Below are positions 37,848 through 57,932 of a stretch of DNA of 64,000 nt, one piece after another (position 1 is the stretch's first letter; each line of letters begins with the position of its first letter). A program made the position numbers and the translations under genes. The DNA lies in IMG/VR virus record IMGVR_UViG_3300043391_000853, positions 85,818 to 149,817 of that record. The stretch is one strand, 5' to 3'. The notes below the pieces were generated by a model. That model did not search any database. It saw only the letters and a list, made by a program, of their open reading frames with translations, and was not told the origin of the DNA. The DNA comes from a virus (taxonomy: Duplodnaviria > Caudoviricetes).

Positions 37848-38075
37848 TTAGAACTTTATCTGCTGTAGTGGTTTGCTTGTGTTTGTGACTGGCTTAGCTC
37901 CTGTGGAAGCTCCTGGGGTGTTCTGGGAAACTGCAGGATTATTCAATACACCTGTCTGCGATACGCGGGCTTCGTTTTGTCCGGTTCCCGGTTGTTGGTC
38001 CACAGGTGCAGAGTTGTACATTGCAGATTTTTGTATATAGCGCTGAAACATGTGCAGGATATTTTCGTTACTCAT
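37848..38075 (-). CDS. Small low-complexity protein with KxA site
   Basis: YIQKSAM followed by a Q/P/T-rich tail; has its own promoter. Confidence 0.55.
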   Translation of the reverse strand: MSNENILHMFQRYIQKSAMYNSAPVDQQPGTGQNEARVSQTGVLNNPAVSQNTPGASTGAKPVTNTSKPLQQIKF

Positions 38076-38082
38076 ACTTTAT

Positions 38083-38111
38083 ATTATAAAGCGAAGCGGT
38101 CGACTTATCAA
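38083..38111 (-). promoter_or_regulatory. Sigma70-like promoter, probably leaderless
   Basis: TTGATA-N17-TATAAT; ATG 7 nt after the -10. Confidence 0.7.
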
Positions 38112-38128
38112 GGTCGTTATATACAAAC

Positions 38129-38155
38129 AAAAAGGGGACCCGAAGGTCCCCTTTT
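38129..38155 (-). terminator. Intrinsic terminator after the major capsid gene
   Basis: Minus strand AAAAGGGGACC-TTCG-GGTCCCCTTTTT, with a C(UUCG)G tetraloop. Confidence 0.9.
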
Positions 38156-38177
38156 ATTATCTGCTTTCTGCTTTGGG

Positions 38178-39137
38178 TTAGCCGTTGAAGTCGACCCTCA
38201 CAACACCCTTCACGTTGCCGATGGCAAGCGAGAGGTTCATGTACTGGAAGTACTCGAGGAAGTAGGCTTCGTTCTTCATGAACACTGTGAGCGGCTGCAG
38301 TCTGTAGTACTTGCCGAAGAATTCTTCGGAAGAGAACAGGTAGATGACGCCGTCAGGTACGAGATCACGCTTGATGGTGTAGACAGGCTTCACACCCAAG
38401 AGAGTCTTGGAAGGAAGACCATTGACCCACATTTCCTGAGCGAGATCGCCGCCAACTTCACTACGGCTCATCTTGACGAAGTCGTCAGCCGTAACGTTGT
38501 TCATGAGCATCACACCCTTGGTTTCGCCGCCATCTGGCTGCGCAGGACCGAAGGGTACTCTGAGCCGCTTGATGACCTTGAATGCTTCAGCGACGTTCTC
38601 GCGAGTGATACCACCAGAGATGGTAACATTCTGAGGAAGACCGAGACCGTTCAGGGTGTTGGCTGTGTTGACAGTACCGATAATGCTGTCCACCTTGTTG
38701 ATGAAACGCGTATCGATTTCAGTGGCGATGTCCTTGGTGGAGAGCTCCAACATGATCGCACGGATGTCGTAATCGTAGCTTCTGAGCTGGTCGATATCCT
38801 TGTTGTACTTCGGACTCGTAATACGGGTGAAGTAGGAAGGATAACGAGTTCCATTGAACTGGAACATGTCAGGCACAACGCCGAGAGGGATAGTTACAGC
38901 AGGAGCTGTATCAGGCTCACGATCATTCCACTTAACAAGAAGCTCAGGATTCTCAGCCTTGTCGAGGTCATCATTGCTGATGTCGATAGGGGTGATAATC
39001 TTCTCAGTGAAGCTTTCTTCACGGAGTTTATTCCGAGTAAAAGACTGCGCGGACACCGCGGCCTTCTTTTCTTCGCCAGCCTTAACCATTTCAACGAATG
39101 TGTCGTTGAATACTCTCTGATTTGCAATTTTTTCCAT
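38178..39137 (-). CDS. Major capsid protein (HK97 fold)
   Basis: 319 aa; KLREESF, RITSPKYNKDIDQLRSYDYDI...KDIATEIDTRF, LLGVKPV, LSLAIGNVKGVVRVDF; AGGAGG RBS, strong codon bias, strong terminator. Confidence 0.85.
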   Translation of the reverse strand: MEKIANQRVFNDTFVEMVKAGEEKKAAVSAQSFTRNKLREESFTEKIITPIDISNDDLDKAENPELLVKWNDREPDTAPAVTIPLGVVPDMFQFNGTRYPSYFTRITSPKYNKDIDQLRSYDYDIRAIMLELSTKDIATEIDTRFINKVDSIIGTVNTANTLNGLGLPQNVTISGGITRENVAEAFKVIKRLRVPFGPAQPDGGETKGVMLMNNVTADDFVKMSRSEVGGDLAQEMWVNGLPSKTLLGVKPVYTIKRDLVPDGVIYLFSSEEFFGKYYRLQPLTVFMKNEAYFLEYFQYMNLSLAIGNVKGVVRVDFNG

Positions 39138-39160
39138 AATGTTATATTCCTCCTAGTTAA

Positions 39161-39718
39161 TTAGATGGCGAGCTTGATACAGACGACAGTTGCGTCAGTC
39201 TGGTACTGAACACCGTTAAGTGTTGCAGTGACCTTGCCTGGAAGGGACCTGGAGGCTTCCACAACTTGTCCGATGATCTTCTGTCCAGTGGTGGCGGAGG
39301 TAGGACCTCCTGTCTGCGTAACCACAGCGCCGGGATCGGCTACAATAACAAGGTTACCGTTAACGTCGGCACTGACATACTTGCCTGGAACGAACCCTGC
39401 TGACCCAGCTCCTGTGGAGCCGCCTGCAGTGTTTGTGAACTTGTCTGTCTCGATGACGCTTGCACCGTCGAGGGCGTAAACACCAATCTTACCGGATTCG
39501 ATAACGTCTCCAGCAGATTGACTGTTGATAGCGAATCCGTAGATCGCTGAGCCGTCGGCAGCTTCTGTGTCATTGGCTGCGAAGCCCTTATAGACTTTGC
39601 CGTCTGCCTGAATACGTACTACATGACCGGCTTCGATGCCTGTTACACCGGAACCAGGGGCAGCTACATAGTTTACTTGATGCAAACTAAGAGCGGGGCC
39701 TTTCTTGAAATTAATCAT
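39161..39718 (-). CDS. Capsid decoration/cement protein
   Basis: Gly-rich beta protein directly upstream of the capsid gene with AGGAG RBS; GHVVRI...GFAIN...GKYVSADVNGNL...IIGQV pattern. Confidence 0.65.
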   Translation of the reverse strand: MINFKKGPALSLHQVNYVAAPGSGVTGIEAGHVVRIQADGKVYKGFAANDTEAADGSAIYGFAINSQSAGDVIESGKIGVYALDGASVIETDKFTNTAGGSTGAGSAGFVPGKYVSADVNGNLVIVADPGAVVTQTGGPTSATTGQKIIGQVVEASRSLPGKVTATLNGVQYQTDATVVCIKLAI

Positions 39719-39835
39719 AATAAGTTACTCCTATTTATTTGTTGTTGATTTTGATTGGGTTATTACCCGTGTTGTTTTGCACCCCGATTGCCGATCAAGG
39801 CTGTTTCGGAAATGGTCCACGAAAGTTATATTAAT

Positions 39836-39864
39836 ATTGTCGCTAATACGTAGTACCAAGTCAA
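39836..39864 (-). promoter_or_regulatory. Sigma70-like promoter of the decoration/capsid operon
   Basis: TTGACT-N17-GACAAT, followed by a leader of about 110 nt. Confidence 0.5.
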
Positions 39865-39876
39865 CGATATTTTAAA

Positions 39877-40491
39877 TTATTTTTTAGCCTGCTTAGAAGG
39901 CTTGCTCTTCCTGGCGGCTGGCGCGGGCTCTTGCTCAGGTGCGGGTTCGTCTGAAGACCTGTCTACGCGACGACCTATCATTCCTCCTAAACCTCTACCC
40001 AGTACAGCTCCACCTGCAGCCATGAGGGGGTTGCGTGTAATCCCTCCACCCACTAAGCCTAACAATGTTCCTAGAGATTGTCCTCTCGATTGATGTGTGT
40101 CGGCGTCTAATTTGTTTTCCGCTATACGCTTACGAATTTCTAACTCATCCGGGGCTGGAGCGATACGCTCCTTGGGTCCTCTGTGATCTAGATAACTACC
40201 ATATGTGCGACCTACTCCAGACCCAACCATGGCTCCGAAGGGTATTGTTAACCCCATACCTGGACGTCCCCGCTTGGCTGCCAATGCAGCTAATCCTCCA
40301 ACAATTCCACCTATTCCTGTGCCTGCTGTGCGATAACTGTTGTTGGTGTAGTCGTCTTCAGCTTGCTGCTGCTCAGCTAAATAATCTTCGTAACCTTTAC
40401 CTGCATACTTTAAAAGATCAGGACTAGGTGTATAGCCGTGTTCCATTGCTCTCTTTACGAATCCTTCGATATATGCTTGTTGTGTGTTCAT
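39877..40491 (-). CDS. Putative internal head/ejection protein: shared module plus glycine zippers
   Basis: YIEGFVKRAMEHGY...LLKYAG; GTGIGGIVGGLA, GAMVGSGVG, GTLLGLVGG, GGAVLGRGLGGMIG. Confidence 0.6.
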   Translation of the reverse strand: MNTQQAYIEGFVKRAMEHGYTPSPDLLKYAGKGYEDYLAEQQQAEDDYTNNSYRTAGTGIGGIVGGLAALAAKRGRPGMGLTIPFGAMVGSGVGRTYGSYLDHRGPKERIAPAPDELEIRKRIAENKLDADTHQSRGQSLGTLLGLVGGGITRNPLMAAGGAVLGRGLGGMIGRRVDRSSDEPAPEQEPAPAARKSKPSKQAKK

Positions 40492-40492
40492 A

Positions 40493-40885
40493 CTAGTCTT
40501 CTAAAAGATTGTAATTACTGTCGTAGCCAAAAGCTCTGCGCATCACAGGATCTTCCGCATGGTTGGATGCTTTGACTGTAGCTACTTTACCCATATAAGC
40601 TACGTCTGCAGCGTTACACACACGTTCTACGACTTTCGCCAGGTACTCGACGTCTTCTCTGGCTTTCTTTACGAATAGTGCCTTTTCATCTTCATCGTTG
40701 ATGAAATCTGCACTGTACATAGCTTCTGCAGCCTTCTTGAGTGCGTTATCCAAAGATCTGTCGCTGGCGACTTTTTCTTCTGCCTGTTGGCTTTGAAGGG
40801 TAGTGACCTGCTGCTTAAGCTCTGATATCTCAGATAAAGCGACTTTAACAAAATTTTCAATCTTATGTAGCGCCTGTTTGGTCAT
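40493..40885 (-). CDS. Scaffold/core-like coiled-coil protein, KxA-rich
   Basis: KQA, KVA (x3), KKA (x2) and KAA in 130 aa. Confidence 0.6.
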   Translation of the reverse strand: MTKQALHKIENFVKVALSEISELKQQVTTLQSQQAEEKVASDRSLDNALKKAAEAMYSADFINDEDEKALFVKKAREDVEYLAKVVERVCNAADVAYMGKVATVKASNHAEDPVMRRAFGYDSNYNLLED

Positions 40886-41018
40886 GTTTAGCTTCCTCTA
40901 AATGTACTAAGCTTTGAATATACTTGAGCACTTTGTGTTTGTCTTCGTCACTTAAGTGCTCTAAAGCTGCTATAGCCTGCCGCTCTACAGAATACTGCTC
41001 TGGAGAGTCGGCAGGCAT
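40863..41018 (-). CDS. Small 51-aa protein missing from ORF track
   Basis: Manual translation MPADSPEQYSVERQAIAALEHLSDEDKHKVLKYIQSLVHLEEAKHDQTGAT fills the gap. Confidence 0.5.
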   Translation of the reverse strand: MPADSPEQYSVERQAIAALEHLSDEDKHKVLKYIQSLVHLEEAKHDQTGAT

Positions 41019-41041
41019 ATAACGTAATAAAACTGCAGCTA

Positions 41042-41998: not shown

Positions 41999-42047
41999 AT
42001 TTTTCTCCTAATTCTTTAAGTGTTAATTGTTTATGTGCTGTATGGAA

Positions 42048-43337
42048 TTACTTCTTCTTTGAGTCTTTATCTTTTGAGCCTTTGCTTTCTGAGTCTTTGC
42101 TGTCTTTACGTGAAGCACGTCCAGCAGCTACGCCAGCGAGACCGGCAGCGGTAGCGCTGAGCTTGCCTCTGTGTTCGTATACCTTTTTGCCTACACTGTC
42201 AGCCACTCCTGCGGCAGCTACCGAAGGGCCAGCGAGATGCTTTTTTGCAAAGCGCTTGACCGGTTCAGCGATATACTTTTCAGCTAAATCTTTTGCTCCG
42301 GAAACCTTGCTCAAGGTTTCATGTACAATCTGAACTGCTTCATCTTCACTAAAACCATACTCAATGGCACTCTTAAAGATCCCTTCGCAGTAAGCGGCAG
42401 TTTTTGCCTCGTCTGCGTTTTCCTTCTTTTTACCTGACAGTGCATATGCTCCTGCTCCTGTAGCAGCTAGACCTGCTGCGGCGATTCCTGCTGCCCGACC
42501 GGGCCTTGTTCGGATGTACTGACCTGCGCGCCTGGCACGCTCTCCTGCTTGTCTTGCAAAGTTGCCTGCAGCTTCAGAGGCTCTGGAGGTGGCTGTCGCC
42601 TTACCTCCACGAACCAAGGTTCCGCTAGATTGTGGAGCTGATTTTGGAGCTGATTTTGGAGCTGATTGCGCTTTAGTGTCGTTTGAAGATCTTTCTACAA
42701 GAGCCAAGGCTCTGCTGGATTTTGGGGCTTCTTGTGCTTTAGCTGCTGCCTCTCTGGCTCTTCTTGCTTTACGTCCGCCGGCGGCAGTTTTCGATAAAGC
42801 TTCGACAGTTTCCGTAAGTGCCTGGTCGTACAAATCGACAGCCTGCTTAACGCTGATACCATTTACAAGCGCCTGGTTAATGAATCCTTCGATGTACGAG
42901 GCAGATTTAATCATATCGAAGGCGGCGGCTTTTTCTGGAGGCATCCCTGGAGCAGTCATCGCTTCTGGGTTTTCTCCTAGATGTCCTTGAATCGCCTGCG
43001 CAAGATGGGCTACATCTTCTCCTCCTTCGTGTTGCTCCGGGTTCTGCATTTCTCCGGACAATGCCTGTGCGAGTTGCTCTAGTTCTTCAGGAGACAACTG
43101 AGCCAGTAATTCCTCTACGCCTCCACCTTCTCCACCTTCATGCTCACCCTCACCCATCCCGTACTCAGACCCACCCATAGCATGCTCAAGCATTTCTGTA
43201 TCTGGAGACTCTGCAGCTTCGTGACCTTCATCTTCTGGCATCCCTCCGGGCATTCCTCCGGGCATTTCTCCGGGCATTTCAGCAGATTGTTTATTGAGGT
43301 AGTGAGCTATCACTGCGTTTACGTATGGGTTAGTCAT
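42048..43337 (-). CDS. Putative internal head polyprotein
   Basis: Acidic M/P/G/E/H-rich N-part, two copies of the shared module, each followed by a basic Gly/Ala-rich segment; MPGx and SAPK micro-repeats. Confidence 0.55.
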   Translation of the reverse strand: MTNPYVNAVIAHYLNKQSAEMPGEMPGGMPGGMPEDEGHEAAESPDTEMLEHAMGGSEYGMGEGEHEGGEGGGVEELLAQLSPEELEQLAQALSGEMQNPEQHEGGEDVAHLAQAIQGHLGENPEAMTAPGMPPEKAAAFDMIKSASYIEGFINQALVNGISVKQAVDLYDQALTETVEALSKTAAGGRKARRAREAAAKAQEAPKSSRALALVERSSNDTKAQSAPKSAPKSAPQSSGTLVRGGKATATSRASEAAGNFARQAGERARRAGQYIRTRPGRAAGIAAAGLAATGAGAYALSGKKKENADEAKTAAYCEGIFKSAIEYGFSEDEAVQIVHETLSKVSGAKDLAEKYIAEPVKRFAKKHLAGPSVAAAGVADSVGKKVYEHRGKLSATAAGLAGVAAGRASRKDSKDSESKGSKDKDSKKK

Positions 43338-43360
43338 AGTTGGTTCCTGTATATTTTTAA

Positions 43361-43389
43361 ATGTTAACTTAAATTTTCTGCTTGTCCAA
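43361..43389 (-). promoter_or_regulatory. Sigma70-like promoter
   Basis: TTGGAC-N17-TAACAT; AGGA RBS downstream. Confidence 0.55.
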
Positions 43390-43396
43390 GTCTTTT

Positions 43397-44845
43397 TTAC
43401 CTATTCTGTATTAAAACATTAAAAATAGTGTCTTCGTCAAGCTTGTTTTGAGAATCCATATATCTTAATGCTGCCAGCTTATATGCTGTGTATTGTTTTG
43501 CTAGTGTTTTAACTGCTGCTTCTTTTGAGAGTTCTTTTTCGTTTGTTTTTCTGTGCAACTTACCTGTGGGAAGTTTTTTGATTATAGTGATCTTCATTAT
43601 CCTTCCGTGTACAGGTTTGTCAAATAGAGAGTGGTCGTCGAAAAGGTTTTTAACCATACTCAACAGTCCTTTGGGTAGAATGTCAGATCCCGATGGCTCA
43701 AACTTATCGTCATTAATCTCCTGGTCTCCGTCCTCCTCCATGTCAGAAAACATTGACGGTAAATGCTTTTTGACTTTACTGGATAATTCTTCCGCATTGG
43801 ATCCGATTGACTTGCCTCCAAAAGAATATTTGATAAAGTCTTTTGGAGAAAACACTATACCGTTGTCTGCTAGTGCACGTAACAACTTAGAGGGTTCATG
43901 TTTTCGCAGTTCTTCGATAACATCGTCTGGTATGTCGTCAGCATGGTTGATCTTTGATTTCTGCTCCACGTCATACTTGTCCTTCGATGTTTTGGGTCCG
44001 TCTTGGATCACTCCTTCGAGGTGCTTTTCGATGGCTGCTAACTTTTTAACCAGGCTACGCTTTTCTGCAGCATGCTTACTAATGCGTAAAAGATTGTCCT
44101 CGTCGTCAGGTACCACAAAGCCTGGATAGATGGTTTTGTAGTCGTTGGCAGTTTTAATGTATCCGTTATCGGCTGCAAGCTTTAGGCTCATACCGATTCT
44201 ATCGGCAGGTCTACCTACAATAGATAACTCGAACCACTTGGGGTCGATATTGTCCATGCTGCACATCTCACCTTGTTTGTTAATTTCTCCAAGCTTCTTA
44301 GGTATGTGCTCGCAACGGTGATTGTCTGTTTTAGCTTCGTGACCGCACCAGGTGCATTTATCGTAAGCCACCTTCGCAGCCATACTCACGTTGATCTGCT
44401 TGCCTTCTGCAAGCTTCTGGATTTCTTCAGCGCACTTGTCGTTATCCATACCAATAACGAGCTCAATACGCTTCATCTTATGATTGTAGGTAGCAGCCTT
44501 AATGTTTCCATACTTAGGGTCGGTAGGCTTGTTTTTATGATGCCTATTAAGTGCCCGTCCATCGTATTTATCATCCTTCTTGCTGCCGGATTTAATGAAG
44601 GTCTTATAGTGCTTTAAACAGGAAGCTTCCTTAAAGATGTCTCCATTTCTGTTGGCTCCTGTGCCTTCGTAGGCTCCTAGTGCAATTACAAGTGCGTCTG
44701 TTTGTCCTGCAGTCTTCTCAACGCGAAGTTCAGAGTTATCAGAACCTGCCTTGGTTAATGTGTTAACATTATGAATCAGCTGTACTGGGTCAATGTCCCA
44801 ATTCCAGTCGTCTGTAGCACTAAATTTAATTAATCCTTTATACAT
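43397..44845 (-). CDS. Prohead maturation protease (HK97/assemblin-type) with CxxC...CxH insert and C-terminal extension
   Basis: NRNGDIF, LNRHHKN (His), VSMAAKVAYDKCTWCGH...CEHI (Ser and Zn ligands), FELSIVGRPAD. Confidence 0.85.
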   Translation of the reverse strand: MYKGLIKFSATDDWNWDIDPVQLIHNVNTLTKAGSDNSELRVEKTAGQTDALVIALGAYEGTGANRNGDIFKEASCLKHYKTFIKSGSKKDDKYDGRALNRHHKNKPTDPKYGNIKAATYNHKMKRIELVIGMDNDKCAEEIQKLAEGKQINVSMAAKVAYDKCTWCGHEAKTDNHRCEHIPKKLGEINKQGEMCSMDNIDPKWFELSIVGRPADRIGMSLKLAADNGYIKTANDYKTIYPGFVVPDDEDNLLRISKHAAEKRSLVKKLAAIEKHLEGVIQDGPKTSKDKYDVEQKSKINHADDIPDDVIEELRKHEPSKLLRALADNGIVFSPKDFIKYSFGGKSIGSNAEELSSKVKKHLPSMFSDMEEDGDQEINDDKFEPSGSDILPKGLLSMVKNLFDDHSLFDKPVHGRIMKITIIKKLPTGKLHRKTNEKELSKEAAVKTLAKQYTAYKLAALRYMDSQNKLDEDTIFNVLIQNR

Positions 44846-44847
44846 AT

Positions 44848-46992
44848 TTATTGTACTTGGTTGGCGGCATCAAACTCTCCTCTTGACTGGAGTAATGTCT
44901 TTTTCCAGTCTTTTTTCTGGTCGTCTGAGAAAGCGCGGTTTTGTATCGCTTTAATTAGATGGTATAACCCTGTTCCTCCTGCGGCTATGGCTCCTCCTGC
45001 GATTACAGGGGTCCTATACCTCGACCAGGCCTTTCTGAGATTGGAACCCTGAAGGGCTTTGTTTTGAAGGTCTTTTAAAGTACTGTCTAGAAAAGCCTTC
45101 CCTTTTGGGTCGCGGGCAGCGCTGAAGTCTCCTCCTTGGCGATACTCATGGACGATTTTCTTGATCAGATCCTCATCAAATCCTGTGTGAGCTCCAGTTA
45201 TTTTGTTTTTTTCAAAAATATCTCCAATCTCCGCATGCATGTTTGGAGCTATGTGATCGGCAATAAAGTCTCCTGCTCCCCAAAACTTGCCTCTTAACTT
45301 ATGTAGCGACTCACCTATTTGTCCCTTCAAGCCTCCCTTTGCGGAGGCGTTTTGCAGAGATTGATGCGCATCTGCGTATCCTCTAAGCTTCGCCATAGAG
45401 GGAGAACTTTTAGCCTTAGCAATTATTTTCTTTTTAAGCTCTGCCTCGTTAGGATGACCTGCGAGGCTGCGGTATTCCTCCAACAATCCTCCGGTTGTTG
45501 TGCCTTCAAGCTTGTCCAATATACCCAAGCGTTTTTCGACATTGCCGTCGAAATCTCCGAAAACTCGAGATATGTCAGGGCGGGCTCTTCCTGCAGGGTC
45601 CAAAAGCTCCGCTGAATTTGTCTTGTCAAATTTTCGATTACCTTCCCTCGCATCACTAGCATTTTGAATCTTTTTGGCGTTATCCCATCGGCGTAGAATA
45701 TCTGTGCCTATACCTCCCGCTGCTACTGCTGCACCAATCTCAGGAGATTTCCCTAGCAGGTCTGTTGCTACGGCTTGTGTAGGATGTTTGTCGTAAAACG
45801 TTTCTCCTGTGTTGCTTTTCAGTCCTGTCATATACTCAAGCCCTACTAAACCCTTTCTGACTTGATCTCTGAGTGCTTCAGTCCTGGCGACTTCATGTTT
45901 AGGTTGCGGGGAACTGTCCCCAGACGAAATTAGAGGGGATACGGCTCTGTACAAATCAGATTGTGTACCAGTGTTCGCGTCTTCTAAATCTTTCTTAAAT
46001 TGTGATAGTGCTGTTTTTTTCATATGTTCACTCTGTTTGATCACTTCCTGACCTTGAGGTTGGGGTTGAACGGCTGTGGTTGGAGGATAGGATATGTTGG
46101 GCGCAATATTAGATGGCTGAGGGGCGTTTGATGGTCGGATGGTATTGCGTGTGCGTCTTGTGCTAGGTTCTGGTCCACCCACGACGTTACCTTGAGCGTC
46201 AAACATTGTTCCCTGTGCCTCCTGTCTTTGACGATCATTAGCTCGGTTGTTCATCTGCTTAGCCAACTCACTATTGGCACTCAAATTATTGAAGACATCT
46301 CTACCTGTATTTATTGTATCGGTAACGAAGCCTATAGCTTGACCAGCTCCAGGCAGCATGGCTGTTGAGGCTGCTATCCCATCTAACCCTGCACCTATAT
46401 AATCGTTTCTGCCTAGTCTATCGACTGCGCTTGCTGCTGACGATGCTGCCATTAATGGTGGAACTAATTTATTGGCTGCAAAATTTGCGCCACGCATGAT
46501 AGGGTTTCTAGCTAGATTACCTGCCTGGTTGATCGCCCTGTTTGTGGCCCGCTCAATCGCAGGAGGTTTAATTAATTTGCTTGCTCCGTATGCGGCAGCT
46601 CCTCCACCTGCACTCAAGGCTGCGTTACCATATTCTCCATTCGCTAGATTAGTTGCTGCGTTAACCGCTCCTACTGCCGCTCCCCCTCTAAGTGCTCCTC
46701 TCGTTAGCATTTTTCCTACAGGCTTTAATGCCTGTGGTGTTAATGCCTGGGGTGTTATAGGTACCCTTCCTGTAAGTAAGGGACTATGCCTGTTTGCACC
46801 GTATTCTAGCGCCCCGAAAGCTGCGTCTGCGGCTGCCGGTACGTATTGTGGATCCCAATCAATATTTTCATCTCTATTTGTAACATTTTTGGCAGCATTC
46901 ATTGCGCCTCGTGCAGCTCCTAGGTAATTGACAGGACCAGGCAGTCCGGCAGCTAACTTGCTCAATATACTGTTACGATCAGGTAATCCCAT
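44848..46992 (-). CDS. Putative internal head/ejection protein with several Gly/Ala-rich hydrophobic segments
   Basis: LSKLAAG near the start, internal KKTAL; GGAAVGAV, GAGLDGIAA, IAGGAIAAGGTGLY. Confidence 0.5.
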   Translation of the reverse strand: MGLPDRNSILSKLAAGLPGPVNYLGAARGAMNAAKNVTNRDENIDWDPQYVPAAADAAFGALEYGANRHSPLLTGRVPITPQALTPQALKPVGKMLTRGALRGGAAVGAVNAATNLANGEYGNAALSAGGGAAAYGASKLIKPPAIERATNRAINQAGNLARNPIMRGANFAANKLVPPLMAASSAASAVDRLGRNDYIGAGLDGIAASTAMLPGAGQAIGFVTDTINTGRDVFNNLSANSELAKQMNNRANDRQRQEAQGTMFDAQGNVVGGPEPSTRRTRNTIRPSNAPQPSNIAPNISYPPTTAVQPQPQGQEVIKQSEHMKKTALSQFKKDLEDANTGTQSDLYRAVSPLISSGDSSPQPKHEVARTEALRDQVRKGLVGLEYMTGLKSNTGETFYDKHPTQAVATDLLGKSPEIGAAVAAGGIGTDILRRWDNAKKIQNASDAREGNRKFDKTNSAELLDPAGRARPDISRVFGDFDGNVEKRLGILDKLEGTTTGGLLEEYRSLAGHPNEAELKKKIIAKAKSSPSMAKLRGYADAHQSLQNASAKGGLKGQIGESLHKLRGKFWGAGDFIADHIAPNMHAEIGDIFEKNKITGAHTGFDEDLIKKIVHEYRQGGDFSAARDPKGKAFLDSTLKDLQNKALQGSNLRKAWSRYRTPVIAGGAIAAGGTGLYHLIKAIQNRAFSDDQKKDWKKTLLQSRGEFDAANQVQ

Positions 46993-47004
46993 AGGTATAA
47001 TGAG

Positions 47005-47370: not shown

Positions 47371-47380
47371 ATAATTGATA

Positions 47381-48772: not shown

Positions 48773-48777
48773 AGTAA

Positions 48778-50241
48778 TTATAATCTGAAGTTTTGATGTT
48801 CACCTTTATTAAATTCCATCGTGGCTACACGACGCTTTAACATTCCTGTATCCAGCTTAGTCATTAAATCTGCGTCAAACTTACTAAGTGCTTGAGTAGC
48901 CATCATGGCTCTCAACTCAGCTCTAACCACTTCTTTCTCTTTTGAGATCTCTGGAGACAGCCTCAATATTTGTTCAAACGCCCTGGCAACTTTGGCTGGG
49001 TTGTGCTTTGACAAGATGGGGTCCGTAATCATCAGCTCTTGCAATAGGAGTTTACGCTCCATATTATCAAGAGTCAGGTTGGGCTTGGCTGGAGGCTTTC
49101 TGAAAATGGATGAAAAGCTTTCCTTAAGAGGTTCTTGCAGTAAGTCGCTAAAAACTTTACCAAAACCAAAAGCTTCCTTCTCCATGGCTTGAGCTAGTAC
49201 AGGATCGCCTGCGTGCTTGGAGGCTAACGAGTACTCAGGATCTGAGGCTTTTTTTTTAATCTCTGCAATTACAGGATCTTCGCTTTCCTCGTCAGAGGAA
49301 GCTTCTGTTTTTTCGCTGTCGTGTGAACACTCGCAGTCTTTTTTAGCGCTATTAAGCGTGCAGCCGCAATTTGAACATTTCGCTGCAGATTGTTTCCCCA
49401 TTAGCTTGCACGTCTCTTTTAGGTAAGCGGTTTCGAAGTTTAAATCAGCTTGCACGTCTTCTGCTGTCTTTGCAGAGCTTAAGTAGAGTTCTGCCGCCTT
49501 CATCAAGTTGTCAAACATCAAGGCTTCCTTGCAGGAGTCGAACATCATATAAGCCGAGTCGTGTACGCCTCTCTCTTCCTTTTGACCAGATGACTTATAG
49601 AGTAAATCGATATAAGGCGTAGCTGCTTCTCCGTGTTTTGCAAAAACTTGAGACTCAAATTCTTCAAAAGATGTCCGGTAGCTCGCCTCTTTTTTAAACT
49701 CGTCAGCAAGTTCAGAGAACCTGTAGTTTAAATCTATCTCAGCTGCCACTTTATCTACTTCTGCTGCGTCTGCCTGCTTGTGCAGCTTCTGAACATAATT
49801 TGCAGACTTTTCATAAACTGTATTGAGTGTGGTAGAGAATGAGTCGTTGGTTTCTCTCGCCTCGTTAATCTCCAGAAAGGCTTTCTTGTATATAGGATTA
49901 CTAAGCATCCTATTATAGTTAAACACGGTCTCGTGAGCTTCGTTGCCTGAAAAATTGTCCGAAGCGTATTCTGCCGAGGTTTTCTCGGTACGAGAAAAAA
50001 CATCTTCAATCACTTGGGGAATGTCGGCGATTTCAAAGTCGACAGAGCGATCGGAGGCTGTCTTGAAATGTTTGTAGTGCAACGCAACATTTAAAGCTTC
50101 CCCAGTTCTCTGGATATAGTTTGGATTAAGATCCATTTCGCTAGCAACCTTACTGAGAGCGGCGGTCGGAGACAGCCCTTCGTTAACTCTTTGTACAGCT
50201 TCGCTGAGGGCGGATTTGATGAGAATATTTGGCTCGTCCAT
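48778..50241 (-). CDS. Putative head core protein, KxA-rich
   Basis: About 14 KxA motifs; CSNCGC...CEC cluster; helical. Confidence 0.55.
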   Translation of the reverse strand: MDEPNILIKSALSEAVQRVNEGLSPTAALSKVASEMDLNPNYIQRTGEALNVALHYKHFKTASDRSVDFEIADIPQVIEDVFSRTEKTSAEYASDNFSGNEAHETVFNYNRMLSNPIYKKAFLEINEARETNDSFSTTLNTVYEKSANYVQKLHKQADAAEVDKVAAEIDLNYRFSELADEFKKEASYRTSFEEFESQVFAKHGEAATPYIDLLYKSSGQKEERGVHDSAYMMFDSCKEALMFDNLMKAAELYLSSAKTAEDVQADLNFETAYLKETCKLMGKQSAAKCSNCGCTLNSAKKDCECSHDSEKTEASSDEESEDPVIAEIKKKASDPEYSLASKHAGDPVLAQAMEKEAFGFGKVFSDLLQEPLKESFSSIFRKPPAKPNLTLDNMERKLLLQELMITDPILSKHNPAKVARAFEQILRLSPEISKEKEVVRAELRAMMATQALSKFDADLMTKLDTGMLKRRVATMEFNKGEHQNFRL

Positions 50242-50254
50242 ATGATTACTTATA

Positions 50255-50283
50255 GTTATAGCACTCTTTGGTTATTATTTCAA
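50255..50283 (-). promoter_or_regulatory. Sigma70-like promoter (weaker match)
   Basis: TTGAAA-N17-TATAAC with TG extension. Confidence 0.4.
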
Positions 50284-52393: not shown

Positions 52394-52402
52394 AAAATAA
52401 CA

Positions 52403-54661
52403 TTATAAATCCATGCCGTCACCTCTGCTCATATTGATGGATAATTCTGGAGACTTACGCTTAAGGAAGATTATAAGATCTCCAATATTCTTCAAGACGT
52501 TCGTTACCAGCTCTACCAGCTCAGGCAAATCTCCTCTACCGTACATCTCCTTAAACTTGTCTGTTTCCCAATGCAATAAAAACAGAATTCTGCCAAGTCG
52601 ATCCATAGCCTCGACCATAGACGGCAAATACTCGGATACCTTGTCGCCTACCGACACATACTTAGCCAAAGCTCCAATCATCTGCGTGTCGAAGATCTCT
52701 TTCTGTCCGTTCTGAGCCATGCGTACAGCGTCGTTAACATATTTGGGGTCGACTCCCTTAATTTCAGGCATCGTACCCAAGTCTTGACGAGTCGGGTTTC
52801 CTGTATAGCTATCCATGGTAGGTAGCGAGTTTTCTTGCCCTATACCTGCACTGGTGGACTGTCCAAACTCGTTAGTGTACGGCTGCTCCTCAAAGGGTTG
52901 AGGATATATGTCTCCGGTATAAGCCAATTTAACGTGACCTTTTTTTGAGAAGCCGGGGACAAGGCTATCGATGAGTGATGCCCCTTCTTTTTCGTCTAGC
53001 CCGATATCCGTAACCATCGCAATCTTGGCTTGAAGAGGGTCGTCGTATCTCTTCTTTGCTCCGTCTATATCAACGAAGTACTCACTACCGTTGGTGTGTA
53101 CAGTCATTGGGAAAATATTCTTATCTCTCAACATCCCGTGCAAGGTGCTTGGATACCCTGGTTCGCCTTTCACGAGTCTTTCTTTTTCCTCTTCAGCGTC
53201 GCGCTTCCGCTTGTCTACGTCTTCCTTCTCTTGTCTTGTAGACTTCGGGGAATTAAACGGATATAAAGGCATTTCGCAACGAAGATGAGACGCTGGAGAA
53301 ATCTTTAGTAGTTTATACCCGGCAGGTACATAAATCATCTTGTCCTTGTACTCAAGACGATCGCCCTGCTTCTTGGTCATCACCAGAATGACTTCCTGCA
53401 TTTTTTTAGGGTGATCGTAAAAGTTGCCTCTAGGTAGATCATGCACGCTTCCTGGCCTATCCCACTTACCTCCCATGTCACCTCTATCTTTCCAGTTGGC
53501 TTCAGTATAGGGCTCTACACTAATCCTACGAATACCTGAAGCATCCTTAAAATTGGCATTGATCCTAAATGGCTGCGTAGCTTTTAAGTTTTCATTGATC
53601 AATATGTACGTATTAGTGTACCCAGGCTTACCTTCGGCGGCATCTACCATCATCTTGTGGATGGTGGAGTAATCTTGTACCTTAATCTGGTCTTTAACAA
53701 AAACACCTTTATGGTCTTTGATGTAAGTTGTGCCGTCCTTAGAGTCGAGGTCGACAACTAGAGTGTCGTCTGTTGCAAAATCTTGCTGCAATTGCTTCGG
53801 TCTTACGAGCAATAGACCGTAGCGCAATCCTCCTAATCTCGTCACATAAGAATAGAAGCCTGACTCAGCAGGATTTATAAATTTCTTGAGATAGTCTACA
53901 GCACCAAAAGTCGACTTCTGGTCTGGTGCTCGATCGTCTACGATTACATAGCCTTGAGTTAGTAATGTTTCTTTGTCAGATTGGTTAAGCTTTTTGGCTT
54001 CTTCCTTGTCTGAGGTTTTCACTACCTTGACTAGATTTATCTTTTTTGTGGCTTTATCGGACTTGCGATACTTATCCCCGTCTTCAAGAGTAATGGCCTC
54101 GGCCACTTTTTCCATGGGGTAGAAACGTAGAACGGACTCGCAAAATTCTGAGTTTTTTTCAAGTAGGTCTGTAAAAGCCTGCTTTGTTACGTTGTCTGAT
54201 TCTTTGACGTAATCAATCACCGAGGCTATCGCATACCTTCCTGTTCTAGGAGGTACACTCATTTGCCGGTAATCTCCCTGGGTAGCATCCCGTAAAATAT
54301 CTGTTCTGCTTTCTTTGGAGTTTTCACCCAAACCTAAGAGTTCATCTTTAATAAACATCTCAGCAAAATCCTCGTTAAGAGGGTAAAACTGTTCGTTGTT
54401 CTTACTATAGAGCAAGTCTAGGTTTTTAACTTTACCGTTAATAAAAAAAGCAGGAACAAAGAGAATTTGTCCGCTCCTGGACCTAAAACCAAACACACCC
54501 AGAGCTTTCGTATTATCCTCATTCTTTTTTACAATTTCAAACCCTACCAGATAAGGAATTAAGTTTTTTAAAGTGTCCTGTAGTCGCTGATAAGCCAACT
54601 GAAAGAACGCTCCTTCAATTTGGTCGTCTGCCGCTTGTTTGGGTAAGAATGTATTGCGCAT
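52403..54661 (-). CDS. Large hypothetical head-module protein
   Basis: 752 aa, starts FLPKQAADD; also KQA, KVA, KIA, KLA sites; own promoter. Confidence 0.55.
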   Translation of the reverse strand: MRNTFLPKQAADDQIEGAFFQLAYQRLQDTLKNLIPYLVGFEIVKKNEDNTKALGVFGFRSRSGQILFVPAFFINGKVKNLDLLYSKNNEQFYPLNEDFAEMFIKDELLGLGENSKESRTDILRDATQGDYRQMSVPPRTGRYAIASVIDYVKESDNVTKQAFTDLLEKNSEFCESVLRFYPMEKVAEAITLEDGDKYRKSDKATKKINLVKVVKTSDKEEAKKLNQSDKETLLTQGYVIVDDRAPDQKSTFGAVDYLKKFINPAESGFYSYVTRLGGLRYGLLLVRPKQLQQDFATDDTLVVDLDSKDGTTYIKDHKGVFVKDQIKVQDYSTIHKMMVDAAEGKPGYTNTYILINENLKATQPFRINANFKDASGIRRISVEPYTEANWKDRGDMGGKWDRPGSVHDLPRGNFYDHPKKMQEVILVMTKKQGDRLEYKDKMIYVPAGYKLLKISPASHLRCEMPLYPFNSPKSTRQEKEDVDKRKRDAEEEKERLVKGEPGYPSTLHGMLRDKNIFPMTVHTNGSEYFVDIDGAKKRYDDPLQAKIAMVTDIGLDEKEGASLIDSLVPGFSKKGHVKLAYTGDIYPQPFEEQPYTNEFGQSTSAGIGQENSLPTMDSYTGNPTRQDLGTMPEIKGVDPKYVNDAVRMAQNGQKEIFDTQMIGALAKYVSVGDKVSEYLPSMVEAMDRLGRILFLLHWETDKFKEMYGRGDLPELVELVTNVLKNIGDLIIFLKRKSPELSINMSRGDGMDL

Positions 54662-54684
54662 AATATTTATCTGCTATTTACTTC

Positions 54685-54713
54685 ATTTTATAAATTTTTT
54701 TCTTGTATATCAA
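54685..54713 (-). promoter_or_regulatory. Sigma70-like promoter
   Basis: TTGATA-N17-TAAAAT. Confidence 0.7.
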
Positions 54714-54726
54714 GAACCATCTCAGA

Positions 54727-56577
54727 TTAACTCTTTTCTCCGAAGCCTACACCGTAGGCTAGCCCTGGGATAGGGCTTGGTCCCTTTACATCTGAGGTCG
54801 CGCCTTTGTTAACCATATTTACAAACCTCTTGGCTAAATTGGTGCTGTTTAGTACATGCATCCAATCATCGTGATGTTCAGGAATGTCTACCAACCTAAC
54901 CATCACAGGCTCGAAGTTGGGAGGGTTATCGTGAACCAGTATCGACTCTATTCCATGTTCTTTCAGCTCATTTATAACTGCCGAGGTCACTTTCGTACCT
55001 ATTGTATAGTGCAGCTCTGTACGCTCCAGGTACTTCCCGTAAGCCAAGTCTAGGCGTAACTCCTTTGCTGCAGCTCTTGGGGTGTAATCCTTCTCTATAG
55101 CAGAGTATGACACTATTTGGTCGTGTGTATAATCTCCTAGACCTTCAGGGTCAGTAATTTTGACGTGATCTATTGCAGCTTTAGCGATAAGTTCAAAATT
55201 TCTTCTATTCACAGGAAGACCACTGTCGTCGAAGGCTTTTTTCATCGCCTGCATATAGTACTTCCTACCTTCTCCGATTCCTTTATATTTAACTACTTCT
55301 CTCGGATCCACCAAACCAGAACTAAGAGTCTGTCCTTGTTCGACCCTATCGCCTAGTTTCACGCCAGGTTCTTGCTCAATACCGATGTAGTGCTCTGTGT
55401 TGTTTACGGAGATGAAGTGTCCTCCTGCAGAGGCAGGCTCTAACTTTGTTATAAATCCGTCCTCCTGAGCTAGAGGGGCTCTACCTATAAAGGTTTTCGG
55501 TATGTTCGCCAGCTGATTAATCAGCTTGAATCCTTGCTGTCCTCCTAATGATGTTGCTGCTCCGCCTGAGTGTCTAGCCTTCATCGCGCTTTCCGTGAGC
55601 GGCTCTGCTACCGCTGTGCCTGCGACTAAGCCTATATAACTATCCATTGCAGCCATACCCTTTTCGCGGCGACCCACACACATCTGACAAAGACCTCCAG
55701 CATGGTGTTTCTTGTTAGACTGGCAGGTCATTGGGGACCTTATCATGATCTGCGTTATGTTTTTGCTAGCTAGATCGTTTAGCATTTTAGCAGAAACTTC
55801 GTTGTTCCTGTTGTAGCCTGCAACTGCTTTAGCCAGGAACGCCCCAATAGACTCTCTGTCTTTCACATCCAAGGTTATCCCGTTGAGTGTTTCGCAGTCG
55901 GATTCTATAATCTGCAGAGGCATCAAAGCTCTGGCGAACTGCTTCGACCCATAACCTCCTTGAGCTACCGATATTTTTTTAAGTACTTCTCCTGACCTGG
56001 TACCGAAAGAGGTGGCTAAGTACTCAGGCAACGTTAGACCTTCGGCATAAGAACTCTTGATGGGGATATCCATTTTAGGTTTCCCTTCCGCATCAACCAC
56101 AAATCCCTGAGTAGTTATAGTTCCTCTATATTGTGCAGGTGTCCCTCTAGAGCCGGCTAGAATAATTTTGGCTAGCGATTTATTTTGCTTTAACCCCTCA
56201 CCTAGAATTTCTTTCTCTATCAAAGACATCATGTCGTTGTAGTTATCGAAAATCTTTTTATCTTTAACTCCTTGAGTGTCGCTACCCTTTTCGACGGTTA
56301 CTTTAAAGCTCTCAAATTTATTCCAGAGCTTATCTTTATCTATAGGAGAAACCAGATCCTTGAGCGTTAGTGACGTCCCCTGTCTTGTAGCTACTTCGAA
56401 GCCTACCTTGGTGAGGTCGGATACTATCTGTGCGTAGTGCTCGGGAGCCTTCTCTGAAAGCTCAGCAAAAAGCTTGGCTATGCCCTTTTTGTCTAGAGTG
56501 ACATCTTCAACCAAAGCATGAAATTGTACGGGAGTAAAAAACTTTAATAACACCCGACCTACGGTGGTTATAGCCAT
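54727..56577 (-). CDS. rpoC: Phage multisubunit RNA polymerase, beta' C-terminal half
   Basis: TTVGR, AGSRG, PIKSSYAEGLTLPEY, bridge helix GTRSG...GGY, DCET and RSPMTC...LCQMC Zn site, trigger loop AEPLTESAMKARHSGG. Confidence 0.92.
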   Translation of the reverse strand: MAITTVGRVLLKFFTPVQFHALVEDVTLDKKGIAKLFAELSEKAPEHYAQIVSDLTKVGFEVATRQGTSLTLKDLVSPIDKDKLWNKFESFKVTVEKGSDTQGVKDKKIFDNYNDMMSLIEKEILGEGLKQNKSLAKIILAGSRGTPAQYRGTITTQGFVVDAEGKPKMDIPIKSSYAEGLTLPEYLATSFGTRSGEVLKKISVAQGGYGSKQFARALMPLQIIESDCETLNGITLDVKDRESIGAFLAKAVAGYNRNNEVSAKMLNDLASKNITQIMIRSPMTCQSNKKHHAGGLCQMCVGRREKGMAAMDSYIGLVAGTAVAEPLTESAMKARHSGGAATSLGGQQGFKLINQLANIPKTFIGRAPLAQEDGFITKLEPASAGGHFISVNNTEHYIGIEQEPGVKLGDRVEQGQTLSSGLVDPREVVKYKGIGEGRKYYMQAMKKAFDDSGLPVNRRNFELIAKAAIDHVKITDPEGLGDYTHDQIVSYSAIEKDYTPRAAAKELRLDLAYGKYLERTELHYTIGTKVTSAVINELKEHGIESILVHDNPPNFEPVMVRLVDIPEHHDDWMHVLNSTNLAKRFVNMVNKGATSDVKGPSPIPGLAYGVGFGEKS

Positions 56578-56978
56578 TATTTTTTAAGTTTTTTGATTAA
56601 GAGCTCGTAAAATGATGCCTGCTTTTGGTTTTGAGCATTATCACCAAACGACTGGGTCGTGGCCATATTCATATTCTTGTCCTTGGACCTTCCTGGAAGG
56701 AGCACATCCTCCTTTTCTTCTTCCAGCTTATTCATCACATCAAGCTCTTTAAACGCTCCTTCCATTATATCGCCTTCGGTATTGCTCTGCGTTTGCTGCT
56801 TCGAAGTGGACATGGTGACATCAGTGTCTTCCAGGTTTTCTTCTTCTCCGTTGTTTACGGTTGCTGTATCATTTAGATCTTGAGCAATCTTTCTTTTGAT
56901 GTAGCAGGCCAAGTCGTAGCTTTTCTCTCCTTTTTCAAAAGAGTTTAAATAAGCTGCAAGTTTTGTGAACTGTCCCAT
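56577..56978 (-). CDS. Acidic hypothetical protein with KxA motifs
   Basis: TKLAA, RKIAQ, QKQAS; TAATG coupling to the beta' C-half gene. Confidence 0.6.
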   Translation of the reverse strand: MGQFTKLAAYLNSFEKGEKSYDLACYIKRKIAQDLNDTATVNNGEEENLEDTDVTMSTSKQQTQSNTEGDIMEGAFKELDVMNKLEEEKEDVLLPGRSKDKNMNMATTQSFGDNAQNQKQASFYELLIKKLKK

Positions 56979-56990
56979 ATTATGTATAAA

Positions 56991-57932
56991 TTAGCCTCCC
57001 ATAGGGGCAGAGTATATACCTCCTCCGCCCATCATTCCTTGTTGGGCTTCCTGTGCTTGTTGCTGCTGTTCCTGTGTCTGCTTTTGTTGTTCGGACTCGG
57101 CTTTTGCTTTGGTCTGATCCATCTTTTGCTTATGCGTGTCTGCAAGCTGTTTGACCTTGAGTAGTGAGGCGGTAGCTGATCCTTTACCTATAAGATCTAA
57201 CAACTCTCTAACAGACAATGTCACCTTGACGTTATCTAGTTCGTTTTTGGCTTCTATAGCTGAAGCCTCTGCTTGCTGGGCGTCTTCGGCTGCCGGATCT
57301 TGTGGAGGGGTAGGCATTTCTTCTTGTCCTCCTAGCGCACCTAATCCTTGCTGCTGTGCAGCGGCGTACAGATCTTCGTCTGCTGCCTGGGCTTCCATTC
57401 CAGGTGGTTGTTGCGGTCCTCCCATACCCTGTTGGCCTCCCATGCTTTGTTGTAGCTCCTGTAACAGCTCGGACAGATGTTGCTCTCTCTGCTCTGTGGG
57501 CATGTTTTGTAATTTCGCTAGAATTGGAGCAATCTGTTGCTGAGCCTCAGGAGGCATCTGTTGTACAGCTGCCATTATTTCAGCCAGCAGTCCGTCGCTT
57601 GCGTCCCCTTGCCCTTGCTGTGGAGGCGCTCCTTGCGGCGGGGCTTGCTGTTGTGCAGCTTGAGGATCCTGGGGCGGCGCTCCTTGAGGAGGTGCCTGCT
57701 GTGGAGGGGCTCCTTGAGGAGGTGCTTGCTGTTGTGCAGCCTGGGGATCCTGTGGAGGAGGTGCTTGTTGCTGTTGTGCAGCTTGTGGATCCTGGGGAGG
57801 CGCTCCTTGCGGCGGGGCTTGCTGTTGAGCAACTGCAGGGTTAGGAACAAATGCACGCTTTTCTTTGGCTGTTTTGTTCAGGCCTCTGTTTGTTATTTTG
57901 TCGTAGTCTGCAAGCAAGTCAGCGATTTTCAT
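56991..57932 (-). CDS. Gln/Pro-rich low-complexity protein with N-terminal KxA cluster
   Basis: MKIAD...NKTAKEKRAF followed by QQAPPQGAPPQDPQAA repeats. Confidence 0.7.
   Translation of the reverse strand: MKIADLLADYDKITNRGLNKTAKEKRAFVPNPAVAQQQAPPQGAPPQDPQAAQQQQAPPPQDPQAAQQQAPPQGAPPQQAPPQGAPPQDPQAAQQQAPPQGAPPQQGQGDASDGLLAEIMAAVQQMPPEAQQQIAPILAKLQNMPTEQREQHLSELLQELQQSMGGQQGMGGPQQPPGMEAQAADEDLYAAAQQQGLGALGGQEEMPTPPQDPAAEDAQQAEASAIEAKNELDNVKVTLSVRELLDLIGKGSATASLLKVKQLADTHKQKMDQTKAKAESEQQKQTQEQQQQAQEAQQGMMGGGGIYSAPMGG
57615..57830. repeat. Coding tandem repeats (QQAPPQGAPPQDPQAA)
   Basis: Recurrent ggatcctgggg, gctccttg and gcttgctgttgtgcagc units. Confidence 0.85.

Follow-up and report, generated by a model that had tools for sequence, protein, structure and literature searches.

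A 64-kb stretch of viral DNA (here referred to as the window; positions 85,818 to 149,817 of the IMG/VR virus record IMGVR_UViG_3300043391_000853) forms the final part of a 149.8-kb linear contig that is ~76% complete and comes from an uncultured phage of ~200 kb. The window genes, nearly all on the minus strand, are those of a contractile-tail phage, with a head module that runs in the order prohead protease (43397-44845), 429-aa, 318-aa, 130-aa, 204-aa, and 185-aa proteins, and major capsid protein (MCP). In four window proteins, including the protease itself, and in one 355-aa protein encoded outside the window, the tripeptide Lys-x-Ala (K-x-A) occurs 3 to 6 times as often as composition predicts. 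We propose, at a probability of roughly 0.75 based on sequence analysis, that the phage's own prohead protease recognizes and cleaves its substrates at K-x-A. Within this reading, the cut probably falls after the alanine.

K-x-A is overrepresented in a small set of proteins

K-x-A was counted in each translated open reading frame (ORF) and compared with a composition-based expectation and with 2,000 shuffles per ORF. The excess was found in a scaffold-like 318-aa protein (shuffle z of 6.0, with none of the 2,000 shuffles reaching 16), a 487-aa head-module protein (z of 5.1), a 130-aa head-module protein (z of 4.2; P = 0.0005), and the protease (z of 3.9); counts and coordinates are given in Table 1. 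The gene for the fifth enriched protein, of 355 aa, stands apart from the head module and precedes the window by 3.8 kb. This protein is the richest in K-x-A in the genome, with 15 of its 28 lysines in the motif (Poisson P = 5e-8) and the sites spaced every ~20 to 25 residues. When 400 residue pairs at gaps of 0 to 3 were scanned without bias across the 179 ORFs of the contig, K-x-A took ranks 1, 3, and 10. Summed over the five proteins, Ala stands at +2 from Lys 65 times against 18.9 expected, and no other offset from -4 to +5 departs from expectation. Lys is not replaced by Arg in these proteins, and Ala is barely replaced by Ser or Gly. All other ORFs of the contig together hold 228 K-x-A against ~250 expected. 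The sites use both Lys codons and all four Ala codons, which places the signal at the protein level. A DNA-level origin was ruled out by these mixed codons and by the at least 14 different residues found at x, and paralogy or shared repeats among the five proteins by pairwise blastp, in which the best E value was 0.088.

The residues around the 65 sites are also biased. Numbered for a cut after Ala, P5 is hydrophobic (I/L/V/F/M) at 35 sites, P2 favors Val or Thr, P1' favors Glu, Ser, or Ala, and P2' favors Asp or Glu. Determinants spaced i, i+2, and i+4 (P5, P3, and P1) have the periodicity of a strand rather than of a helix and would fit an extended strand bound in the protease cleft. In the same five proteins, the motifs (L/I)-x-E and (S/A/G)-x-E are at expectation, as judged by motif enrichment only.

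An earlier note on this DNA, made by reading the letters, had pointed to a concentration of K-x-A in head-module proteins. Its site counts held up: 16 of the 32 lysines of the scaffold-like protein have Ala at +2, including 11 consecutive lysines (K161 to K294), and the ~7 sites of the 130-aa protein and ~3 of the sheath were found again, while the ~14 given for the 487-aa protein proved slightly low (15 counted). The four protease sites that it listed after the catalytic domain are KLA222, KTA231, KHA257, and KLA268. The excess remained after correction for Lys and Ala content by shuffles, Poisson statistics, and the contig-wide pair scan, and it held among relatives down to ~28% protease identity, even where the substrates lack detectable similarity.

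The enrichment is conserved across distant relatives

IMG/VR relatives of this phage have genomes of 165 to 204 kb, and its closest cultured relatives are Salmonella phage Arash (180.8 kb) and the Vibrio phages D69, D148, and D181, with which it shares ~28-30% identity in the protease and 26-27% in the capsid protein. Searched by megablast, 50,697 phage records contained no match to the head module. The order of the head module, with the protease beside scaffold-like and capsid genes, is the same in the relatives, Arash, and D69.

In 13 IMG/VR relatives, all four enriched window proteins keep a ~3-fold excess of K-x-A. The 13 homologues of the 318-aa protein have 12 to 16 sites against 4.3 to 5.8 expected, those of the 130-aa protein have 5 to 9 against 1.5 to 2.4, and those of the 487-aa protein have 12 to 19 against 3.8 to 6.2. 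In 18 relatives, the 355-aa protein has 14 to 16 sites against 2.3 to 2.9; nine of them recur in all 19 sequences, and the others shift by 1 to 3 alignment columns as the total stays at 14 to 16. Lys and Ala are better conserved inside sites than elsewhere in the 487-aa protein (0.82/0.77 versus 0.57/0.57) and in the 429-aa protein (0.72/0.72 versus 0.35/0.46), the latter not being enriched by itself, and the same is true of the protease. Evolution of this kind, with K and A fixed, x free, and sites shifting at a constant count, is that of a motif and supports a cleavage code.

An HMMER search of 1.84 billion cluster representatives (50% identity) retrieved 2,451 protease relatives, 183 of them below 1e-30. 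The 91 full-length sequences among the best 150 matches, 28 to 55% identical to the window protease, contain 1,032 K-x-A against 323 expected, and +2 is the sole strongly enriched offset; a small extra rise at +3 (418) would be expected if the Ala were often followed by another Ala. Arash and D69 show the enrichment in the protease and in three genes next to it (for example, Arash gp220, 10 versus 3.0, and gp225, 7 versus 1.8), and these neighbors have no detectable similarity to the window proteins. K-x-A is likewise the top gapped dipeptide in the protease and downstream scaffold-like gene of three more metagenomic lineages (16 versus 4.0, 12 versus 3.9, and 8 versus 3.2), and gp19 of Bacillus phage G has 8 against 2.5. 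Rhodococcus phage Finch, an actinophage of high G+C content, encodes a protease joined to a long acidic stretch (gp17, 989 aa). There, R-x-A ranks first among the gapped pairs (17 versus 6.5), and the catalytic domain is followed by RKAS. The basic position of the motif seems to follow genome composition. As judged from these sequences, the enrichment tracks the protease lineage and not the sequences of the substrates.

The protease resembles T4 gp21 and carries K-x-A at its predicted release site

The sole family match of the protease is PHROG 18299, "head maturation protease" (E = 3.7e-9). A Pfam search found no family at E values up to 0.01 (Peptidase_S77 and Peptidase_S78 included), the family profile compared with T4 gp21 and HK97 gp4 gave E values of 0.32 and 0.48, and a profile search of PDB sequences returned nothing relevant. 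We give the fold from an AlphaFold2 (AF2) model of residues 1 to 260 built on 92 diverse homologues, an earlier full-length model built on 13 close relatives having been unusable for the catalytic domain (predicted local distance difference test [pLDDT] score of 44). The mean pLDDT over residues 1 to 260 is 82.8; residues 1 to 213 are confident and residues 214 to 238 fall below 50. With this model, the sole real Foldseek match was T4 gp21 (5jbl; probability, 1.00; E = 1.5e-3), and VIA exhaustive structural alignment gave the same protein a Z of 12.8 with a root mean square deviation of 3.3 over 149 of 165 residues. Herpesvirus proteases matched weakly, in a middling range (varicella-zoster virus [VZV], Z of 6.3; human cytomegalovirus [HCMV], 5.0; Kaposi's sarcoma-associated herpesvirus, 2.6), and unrelated structures in the ranking were below a Z of 5. 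In the model, then, the catalytic domain folds like T4 gp21, and the nearest solved fold is not that of HK97 gp4. The putative catalytic residues H103 and S154 are kept in 91 and 92 of the 92 homologues, respectively, and S208 is also kept in all 92.

Just past the RPAD motif that marks the end of the catalytic domain, K-x-A is present in all 92 aligned proteases. The Lys lies 6 or 7 residues after PAD in 77 of 89 proteases, the consensus is L-x-K-V-A-S, and the residue after the Ala is Ser in 59 of 89, Gly in 10, and Ala in 8. In the window protease, K222-L-A-A occupies this position within the stretch predicted to be disordered; the corresponding sequences are ...GADRQAKILEKVAS in phage G and ...HARKAS in Finch. 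K231-T-A follows in the same linker, and further sites lie at K257, K268, K441, and K456. By analogy, the post-domain K-x-A sits where T4-type and herpesvirus proteases release themselves, and SPN3US gp245 and phiKZ gp175 are documented to cleave off their C-terminal part at the motif that they themselves recognize (PMC5694885). In 89 of 92 proteases, a second K-x-A site with the pattern (L/F/M)-x-K-x-A-(S/A) is found around residue 32.

After the catalytic Ser, residues 164 to 180 of the protease contain a conserved C-x2-C...C-x-H cluster (C164, C167, C178, and H180; CTWCGH...RCEH) that, from its sequence, looks like a zinc knuckle and recurs in gp19 of phage G and gp17 of Finch. Many relatives have protease genes of 750 to 1,270 aa through one or two inserted inteins (Hint plus LAGLIDADG), for example L007:8342-10954 (plus strand), P0002, P0009, and P0019. 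The intein-related alignment breaks fall ~0 to 20 residues past Ser154, in the Cys-rich stretch; the window protease has no intein.

Predicted substrates and N-terminal sites

The 318-aa protein is acidic and is encoded between the protease and capsid genes, and it is on this gene position and its composition that we regard it as a candidate scaffold. It contains two diverged tandem repeats of ~55 aa (residues ~28 to 82 and ~100 to 154), with the pattern GxPGxDVRSxSVGD...KNSxxPEN...EPLxxAK(T/K)A and a K-x-A at the end of each. Cut at every site, it would yield fragments with a median of 15 aa and a maximum of 59; over the enriched proteins, such cuts would leave fragments with medians of 15 to 23 residues and a maximum of 72, sizes that fit clearance of a scaffold or core. 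The 487-aa protein may be an internal protein or belong to the core. In Pfam and PHROG, the putative substrates matched no family, apart from a weak match of the 355-aa protein to DUF6582, under the Pfam cutoff.

In the MCP, K-x-A is found only at K3-I-A5 and K24/K25-x-A26/27. Nearly all K-x-A sites of 116 MCP homologues are likewise at residues ~3 to 7 and ~24 to 30, the one exception that recurs, in 37 homologues, lying around residue 310, and the Arash and D69 MCPs have K27-E-A29 at the position matching that of the window MCP. The MCP is thus predicted from sequence to carry a short N-terminal propeptide. In the 752-aa virion protein, the L, K8, and A10 of the N-terminal site are invariant in eight homologues (x being Q, I, Y, or A), and all six K-x-A sites are 100% conserved against 0.84/0.76 for the other K/A. 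This protein is weakly homologous to Arash gp218, which mass spectrometry (MS) places in the virion (PMC10585845).

A search of all ORFs by regular expression revealed a shared module of ~17 residues, (Q)QAY(I/C)(E/N)GF(V/I)K(R/S)A.(E/Q).G(Y/F), which contains K-x-A and is found on otherwise unrelated proteins. The module (AYIEGFVKRAxExGY) is N-terminal only in the 204-aa protein and internal in the other three. It may be a head-targeting helix, and the N terminus of the 204-aa protein is a candidate head-targeting leader that ends in K-x-A.

K-x-A occurs within the first 35 residues of 9 of 17 head-module ORFs, against 4.5 expected (10 of 18 when the MCP is counted), and of 25 of 162 ORFs outside the head module, against 25.6 expected. 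All of the N-terminal sites given in the earlier note are present: MEKIA and EKKAA in the MCP, PKQAA in the 752-aa protein, SKLAA in the 714-aa protein, TKLAA in the 133-aa protein, KIA, KTA, and KRA in the 313-aa protein, QKSAM in the 75-aa ORF, and QKKAI in the plus-strand ORF at 62977. Its broader claim, that K-x-A is a mark of proteins packaged into the head, is supported in part: it is clear for the multisite proteins, and single N-terminal sites show an ~2-fold excess in the head module, but some of these are not conserved in homologues, SKLAA of the 714-aa protein being an example. The ten homologues of that Ala-rich protein contain 21 K-x-A in total against 48 expected, a depletion that possibly reflects selection to resist the protease. 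The 714-aa gene is just upstream of the protease gene and has no counterpart beside the Arash protease.

Comparison with known prohead proteases

Cleavage codes of prohead proteases have been established for few phages (PMC5694885), and every T4-type enzyme so far characterized has its scissile bond behind a Glu (PMC5694885, PMC12991175). The T4 system served as a positive control for our statistic. In T4, the (L/I)-x-E motif is enriched in gp22 (16 versus 5.8), gp21 (7 versus 2.6), and gp68 (5 versus 2.0), whereas the head proteins of T4 show no significant excess of K-x-A (gp22, 6 versus 3.4). Nor is K-x-A enriched in HK97 (gp4, 4 versus 1.5; gp5 delta domain, 1 versus 1.1). The gp22 and delta domain counts rule out K-x-A as a generic trait of K/A-rich scaffolds.

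T4 gp21 (5jbl) and the window protease have in common the fold, a Ser/His enzyme, a gene beside scaffold and capsid genes, and a three-residue code with P3 and P1 determinants that is ~3-fold enriched in scaffold and protease. The T4 substrates, cut at (L/I)-x-E↓ (↓, scissile bond), are the gp22 scaffold, gp23, gp24, gp68, and internal proteins with capsid-targeting sequences; the T4 scaffold is cut to small peptides, as is predicted for the window phage. The two differ in their determinants (Lys and Ala in the window phage, Leu/Ile and Glu in T4) and have no sequence-level similarity. The window protease is also distinguished by its length of 482 aa, with a C-terminal extension of ~260 aa and a Cys-rich insertion past the catalytic Ser. 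T4-type capsid-targeting sequences are short N-terminal leaders that unrelated head-cargo proteins share and that are removed at the motif; the shared module of the window phage is N-terminal on one of four proteins.

The proteases of phiKZ (gp175), SPN3US (gp245), and 201phi2-1, with the motif (S/A/G)-x-E↓, belong to large myoviruses with many internal proteins and RNA polymerase subunits in the head, as is suggested for the window phage, and they resemble the window system in the multiple motif copies in propeptides and in the C-terminal autocleavage of the protease, which is predicted for the window enzyme (PMC5694885, PMC10052503). They have Glu at P1, whereas the window phage would have Ala, and no sequence relation is detectable. 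Herpesvirus assemblins (VZV, 1vzv; HCMV, 8j3s), which cut (V/L/I)-x-A↓S, have Ala at P1, Ser at P1', and a release site directly after the catalytic domain, a pattern with which the K-V-A-S of most homologues of the window protease agrees in sequence. Their fold match is weak, the proposed window code has Lys at P3 with a hydrophobic P5, and the window phage has dozens of sites in its substrates compared with two per herpesvirus precursor. HK97 gp4 (Peptidase_S78) is a prohead serine protease of the same superfamily whose gene is also upstream of the capsid gene, but the window protease has no Pfam S78 match and HK97 lacks K-x-A enrichment. HK97 gp4 cuts gp5 after Lys103.

Proposed mechanism

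In the mechanism that we propose, a Ser/His protease with the T4 gp21/herpesvirus assemblin fold would be incorporated into the procapsid along with the scaffold-like and several internal proteins. After activation, it would bind its substrates as extended strands and read every second side chain (P5 hydrophobic, P3 Lys, and P1 Ala), would prefer Val or Thr at P2, Ser, Ala, or Glu at P1', and Asp or Glu at P2', and would cut after the Ala. It would detach the catalytic domain from the rest of the enzyme at L-x-K-V/L-A↓S/A, within the disordered linker that follows residue ~215, remove a propeptide of ~26 residues from the capsid protein, and trim the N termini of a few virion proteins. The 318-, 130-, 487-, and 355-aa proteins would be chopped to peptides of ~15 to 25 residues that either leave the shell or stay as internal peptides.

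Alternative explanations

A protein-level motif that is confined to proteins assembling with the protease, is kept across the clade, and stands at the self-release position is best read as a cleavage code. The claim of the earlier note that the protease cuts at K-x-A↓ agrees with all of our computational tests, including the post-domain site in 92 of 92 proteases and the likeness to the T4 control; that K-x-A is cleaved is nonetheless something we infer from sequence, and the scissile bond is placed solely by analogy. Several further observations weigh against the proposed code. Six conserved K-x-A lie inside the folded catalytic domain, one of them adjoining the catalytic Ser (SMAAKVA), and the motif there cannot simply be a free cleavage site. 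At the second site, near residue 32, the window protease and its clade have K-A-G. The scaffold sites are no better conserved than the other Lys and Ala of that protein, although their number is held. Several N-terminal sites are only 2 to 6 residues from the N terminus, where cutting has no obvious use, and such sites also occur in eight non-head ORFs. Finally, the K-x-A-rich Arash proteins gp220, gp223, and gp225 were detected in a virion preparation in a study in which cleavage was not analyzed (PMC10585845). That preparation, however, also included ribonucleotide reductase and other nonstructural enzymes (PMC10585845). A multi-omics paper on phage G, which used strict tryptic searches, reported no processing (PMC12484599).

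Some of these observations would be expected if K-x-A were a docking or assembly motif that is bound and left uncut, for instance as a contact of core proteins with one another, the protease, or the inner surface of the shell, or if it were the end of a head-targeting helix and cleavage took place at other positions or nowhere; we consider this reading unlikely. The conserved sites inside the folded protease domain and the detection of K-x-A-rich Arash proteins would fit, as would the motif's position at the end of the shared module in four or five unrelated proteins, but docking leaves unexplained the invariant site in the disordered post-domain linker, the restriction of the motif to the first ~30 residues of the MCP, and the likeness to the statistics of the proven T4 cleavage motif. 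Targeting and cutting also do not exclude each other: T4 capsid-targeting sequences end in the cleavage motif. If the protease does cut at K-x-A, it could do so at another bond, after the Lys or between x and Ala, since the statistics fix K and A rather than the scissile bond and there are preferences on both sides. We regard this as improbable given that enzymes of this fold from T4, phiKZ, and SPN3US recognize P3 and P1 and cleave behind P1 (PMC5694885, PMC12991175), that the Ser/Ala/Gly preference after the Ala mirrors the herpesvirus Ala↓Ser site, and that HK97 head proteins show no enrichment; the P3-x-P1 rule and the herpesvirus site are together the analogy by which we place the cut after Ala. 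The invariance of a reactive Lys, in a motif confined to proteins that meet inside the procapsid, might instead mark that Lys for methylation, acylation, or an isopeptide cross-link in head-internal proteins. This is very improbable: Pfam and PHROG scans of the module brought no transferase or cross-linking partner to notice, the motif covaries with the protease lineage, and Arg replaces Lys in Finch, which counts against Lys chemistry. As for composition or chance, the enriched proteins are indeed rich in K, A, and E, and helical proteins of this kind might yield K-x-A by themselves, but the shuffles and Poisson statistics correct for this, the excess is restricted to +2, and T4 gp22, itself rich in K, A, and E, lacks a significant one, leaving almost no room for such an origin.

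Other features of the window and head module

Among the structural genes of the window are those for a 1,041-aa sheath and a 3,063-aa protein, and pieces of RNA polymerase beta' and beta lie inside the structural module (Table 1). Homologues of RNA polymerase subunits are among the most abundant proteins of the Arash virion preparation (PMC10585845), which suggests by analogy that the window phage packages an RNA polymerase, as in phiKZ-like phages. The 429-aa protein has MPGE/MPGG repeats near its N terminus, Ala/Gly-rich zipper-like stretches, and a Lys/Ser/Asp-rich tail. It evolves very fast: among relatives whose proteases are 57 to 80% identical to that of the window, it aligns only partially, at 33 to 66% identity.

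Table 1. Positions of the protease, candidate substrates, and other features (window coordinates unless marked as contig; K-x-A given as observed versus expected)
Feature	Position	Strand	K-x-A	Remarks
Sheath, 1041 aa	32452-35577	-	3 vs 3.3	
75-aa ORF	37848-38075	-	1	QKSAM at residues 15-19; single site without statistical weight
MCP, 319 aa	38178-39137	-		27% identical to annotated Arash MCP, E 2e-25
204-aa protein	39877-40491	-		Begins with shared module; K-x-A at residues 13 and 28
130-aa head-module protein	40493-40885	-	7 vs 1.9	
Scaffold-like protein, 318 aa	41042-41998	-	16 vs 4.7	
429-aa Gly/Ala/Pro-rich protein	42048-43337	-	8 vs 6.2	Alone not enriched
Prohead serine protease, 482 aa	43397-44845	-	12 vs 4.6	Predicted catalytic domain ~1-215 plus C-terminal helical extension
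714-aa Ala-rich protein	44848-46992	-	2 vs 6.8	Depleted
487-aa head-module protein	48778-50241	-	15 vs 4.9	
752-aa virion protein	52403-54661	-		N-terminal L-x-K8-x-A10
RNA polymerase beta' and beta pieces	54727-56577; 58195-61188	-		
133-aa protein	56577-56978	-	3 vs 1.1	K6-L-A
313-aa Pro/Gln/Ala-rich protein	56991-57932	-	3 vs 2.5	K2-I-A, K20-T-A, K25-R-A; not enriched
355-aa protein	contig 80982-82049	-	15 vs 2.4	Outside window
Shared module	39877-40491 residues 5-22; 42048-43337 residues 314-331	-		Sequences QQAYIEGFVKRAMEHGY and AYCEGIFKSAIEYGF
Shared module	contig 198-1724 residues 356-373; contig 13578-14618 residues 166-183			Outside window

Implications for large phages

The kind of system described here is well known; the proposed K-x-A code would be new relative to the x-x-Glu codes of T4 and phiKZ. 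A literature search, with most subscription journals outside its scope, turned up no account of Lys-x-Ala as a cleavage motif in phages. If the proposal is correct, it would give the first T4 gp21-type phage protease with Ala-P1 specificity and a case of the same fold shifted to a different P3/P1 pair, and it would link these phages functionally to herpesvirus assemblins with their Ala↓Ser sites. We put at somewhat better than even the chance that a very large, mostly uncultured clade of big phages shares a basic-x-Ala head-maturation code, cut after Ala. The clade comprises >2,400 protease clusters at 50% identity and includes phage G, Arash, the Vibrio phages, and, with Arg for Lys, Finch. 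Its cultured members include Arash, phage G, and D69, two of them with raw virion MS data.

The specificity of prohead proteases is also relevant to antiphage defense, in that the cGAS/DncV-like nucleotidyltransferases (CD-NTases) of CBASS (antiphage signaling systems based on cyclic oligonucleotides) sense T4 via an I/L-x-E-containing loop that is cut by gp21 (PMC12991175). With a K-x-A code in hand, the mature capsid proteins, the fate of the scaffold, and the head-internal or ejected cargo would become predictable from sequence across thousands of uncultured large phages.

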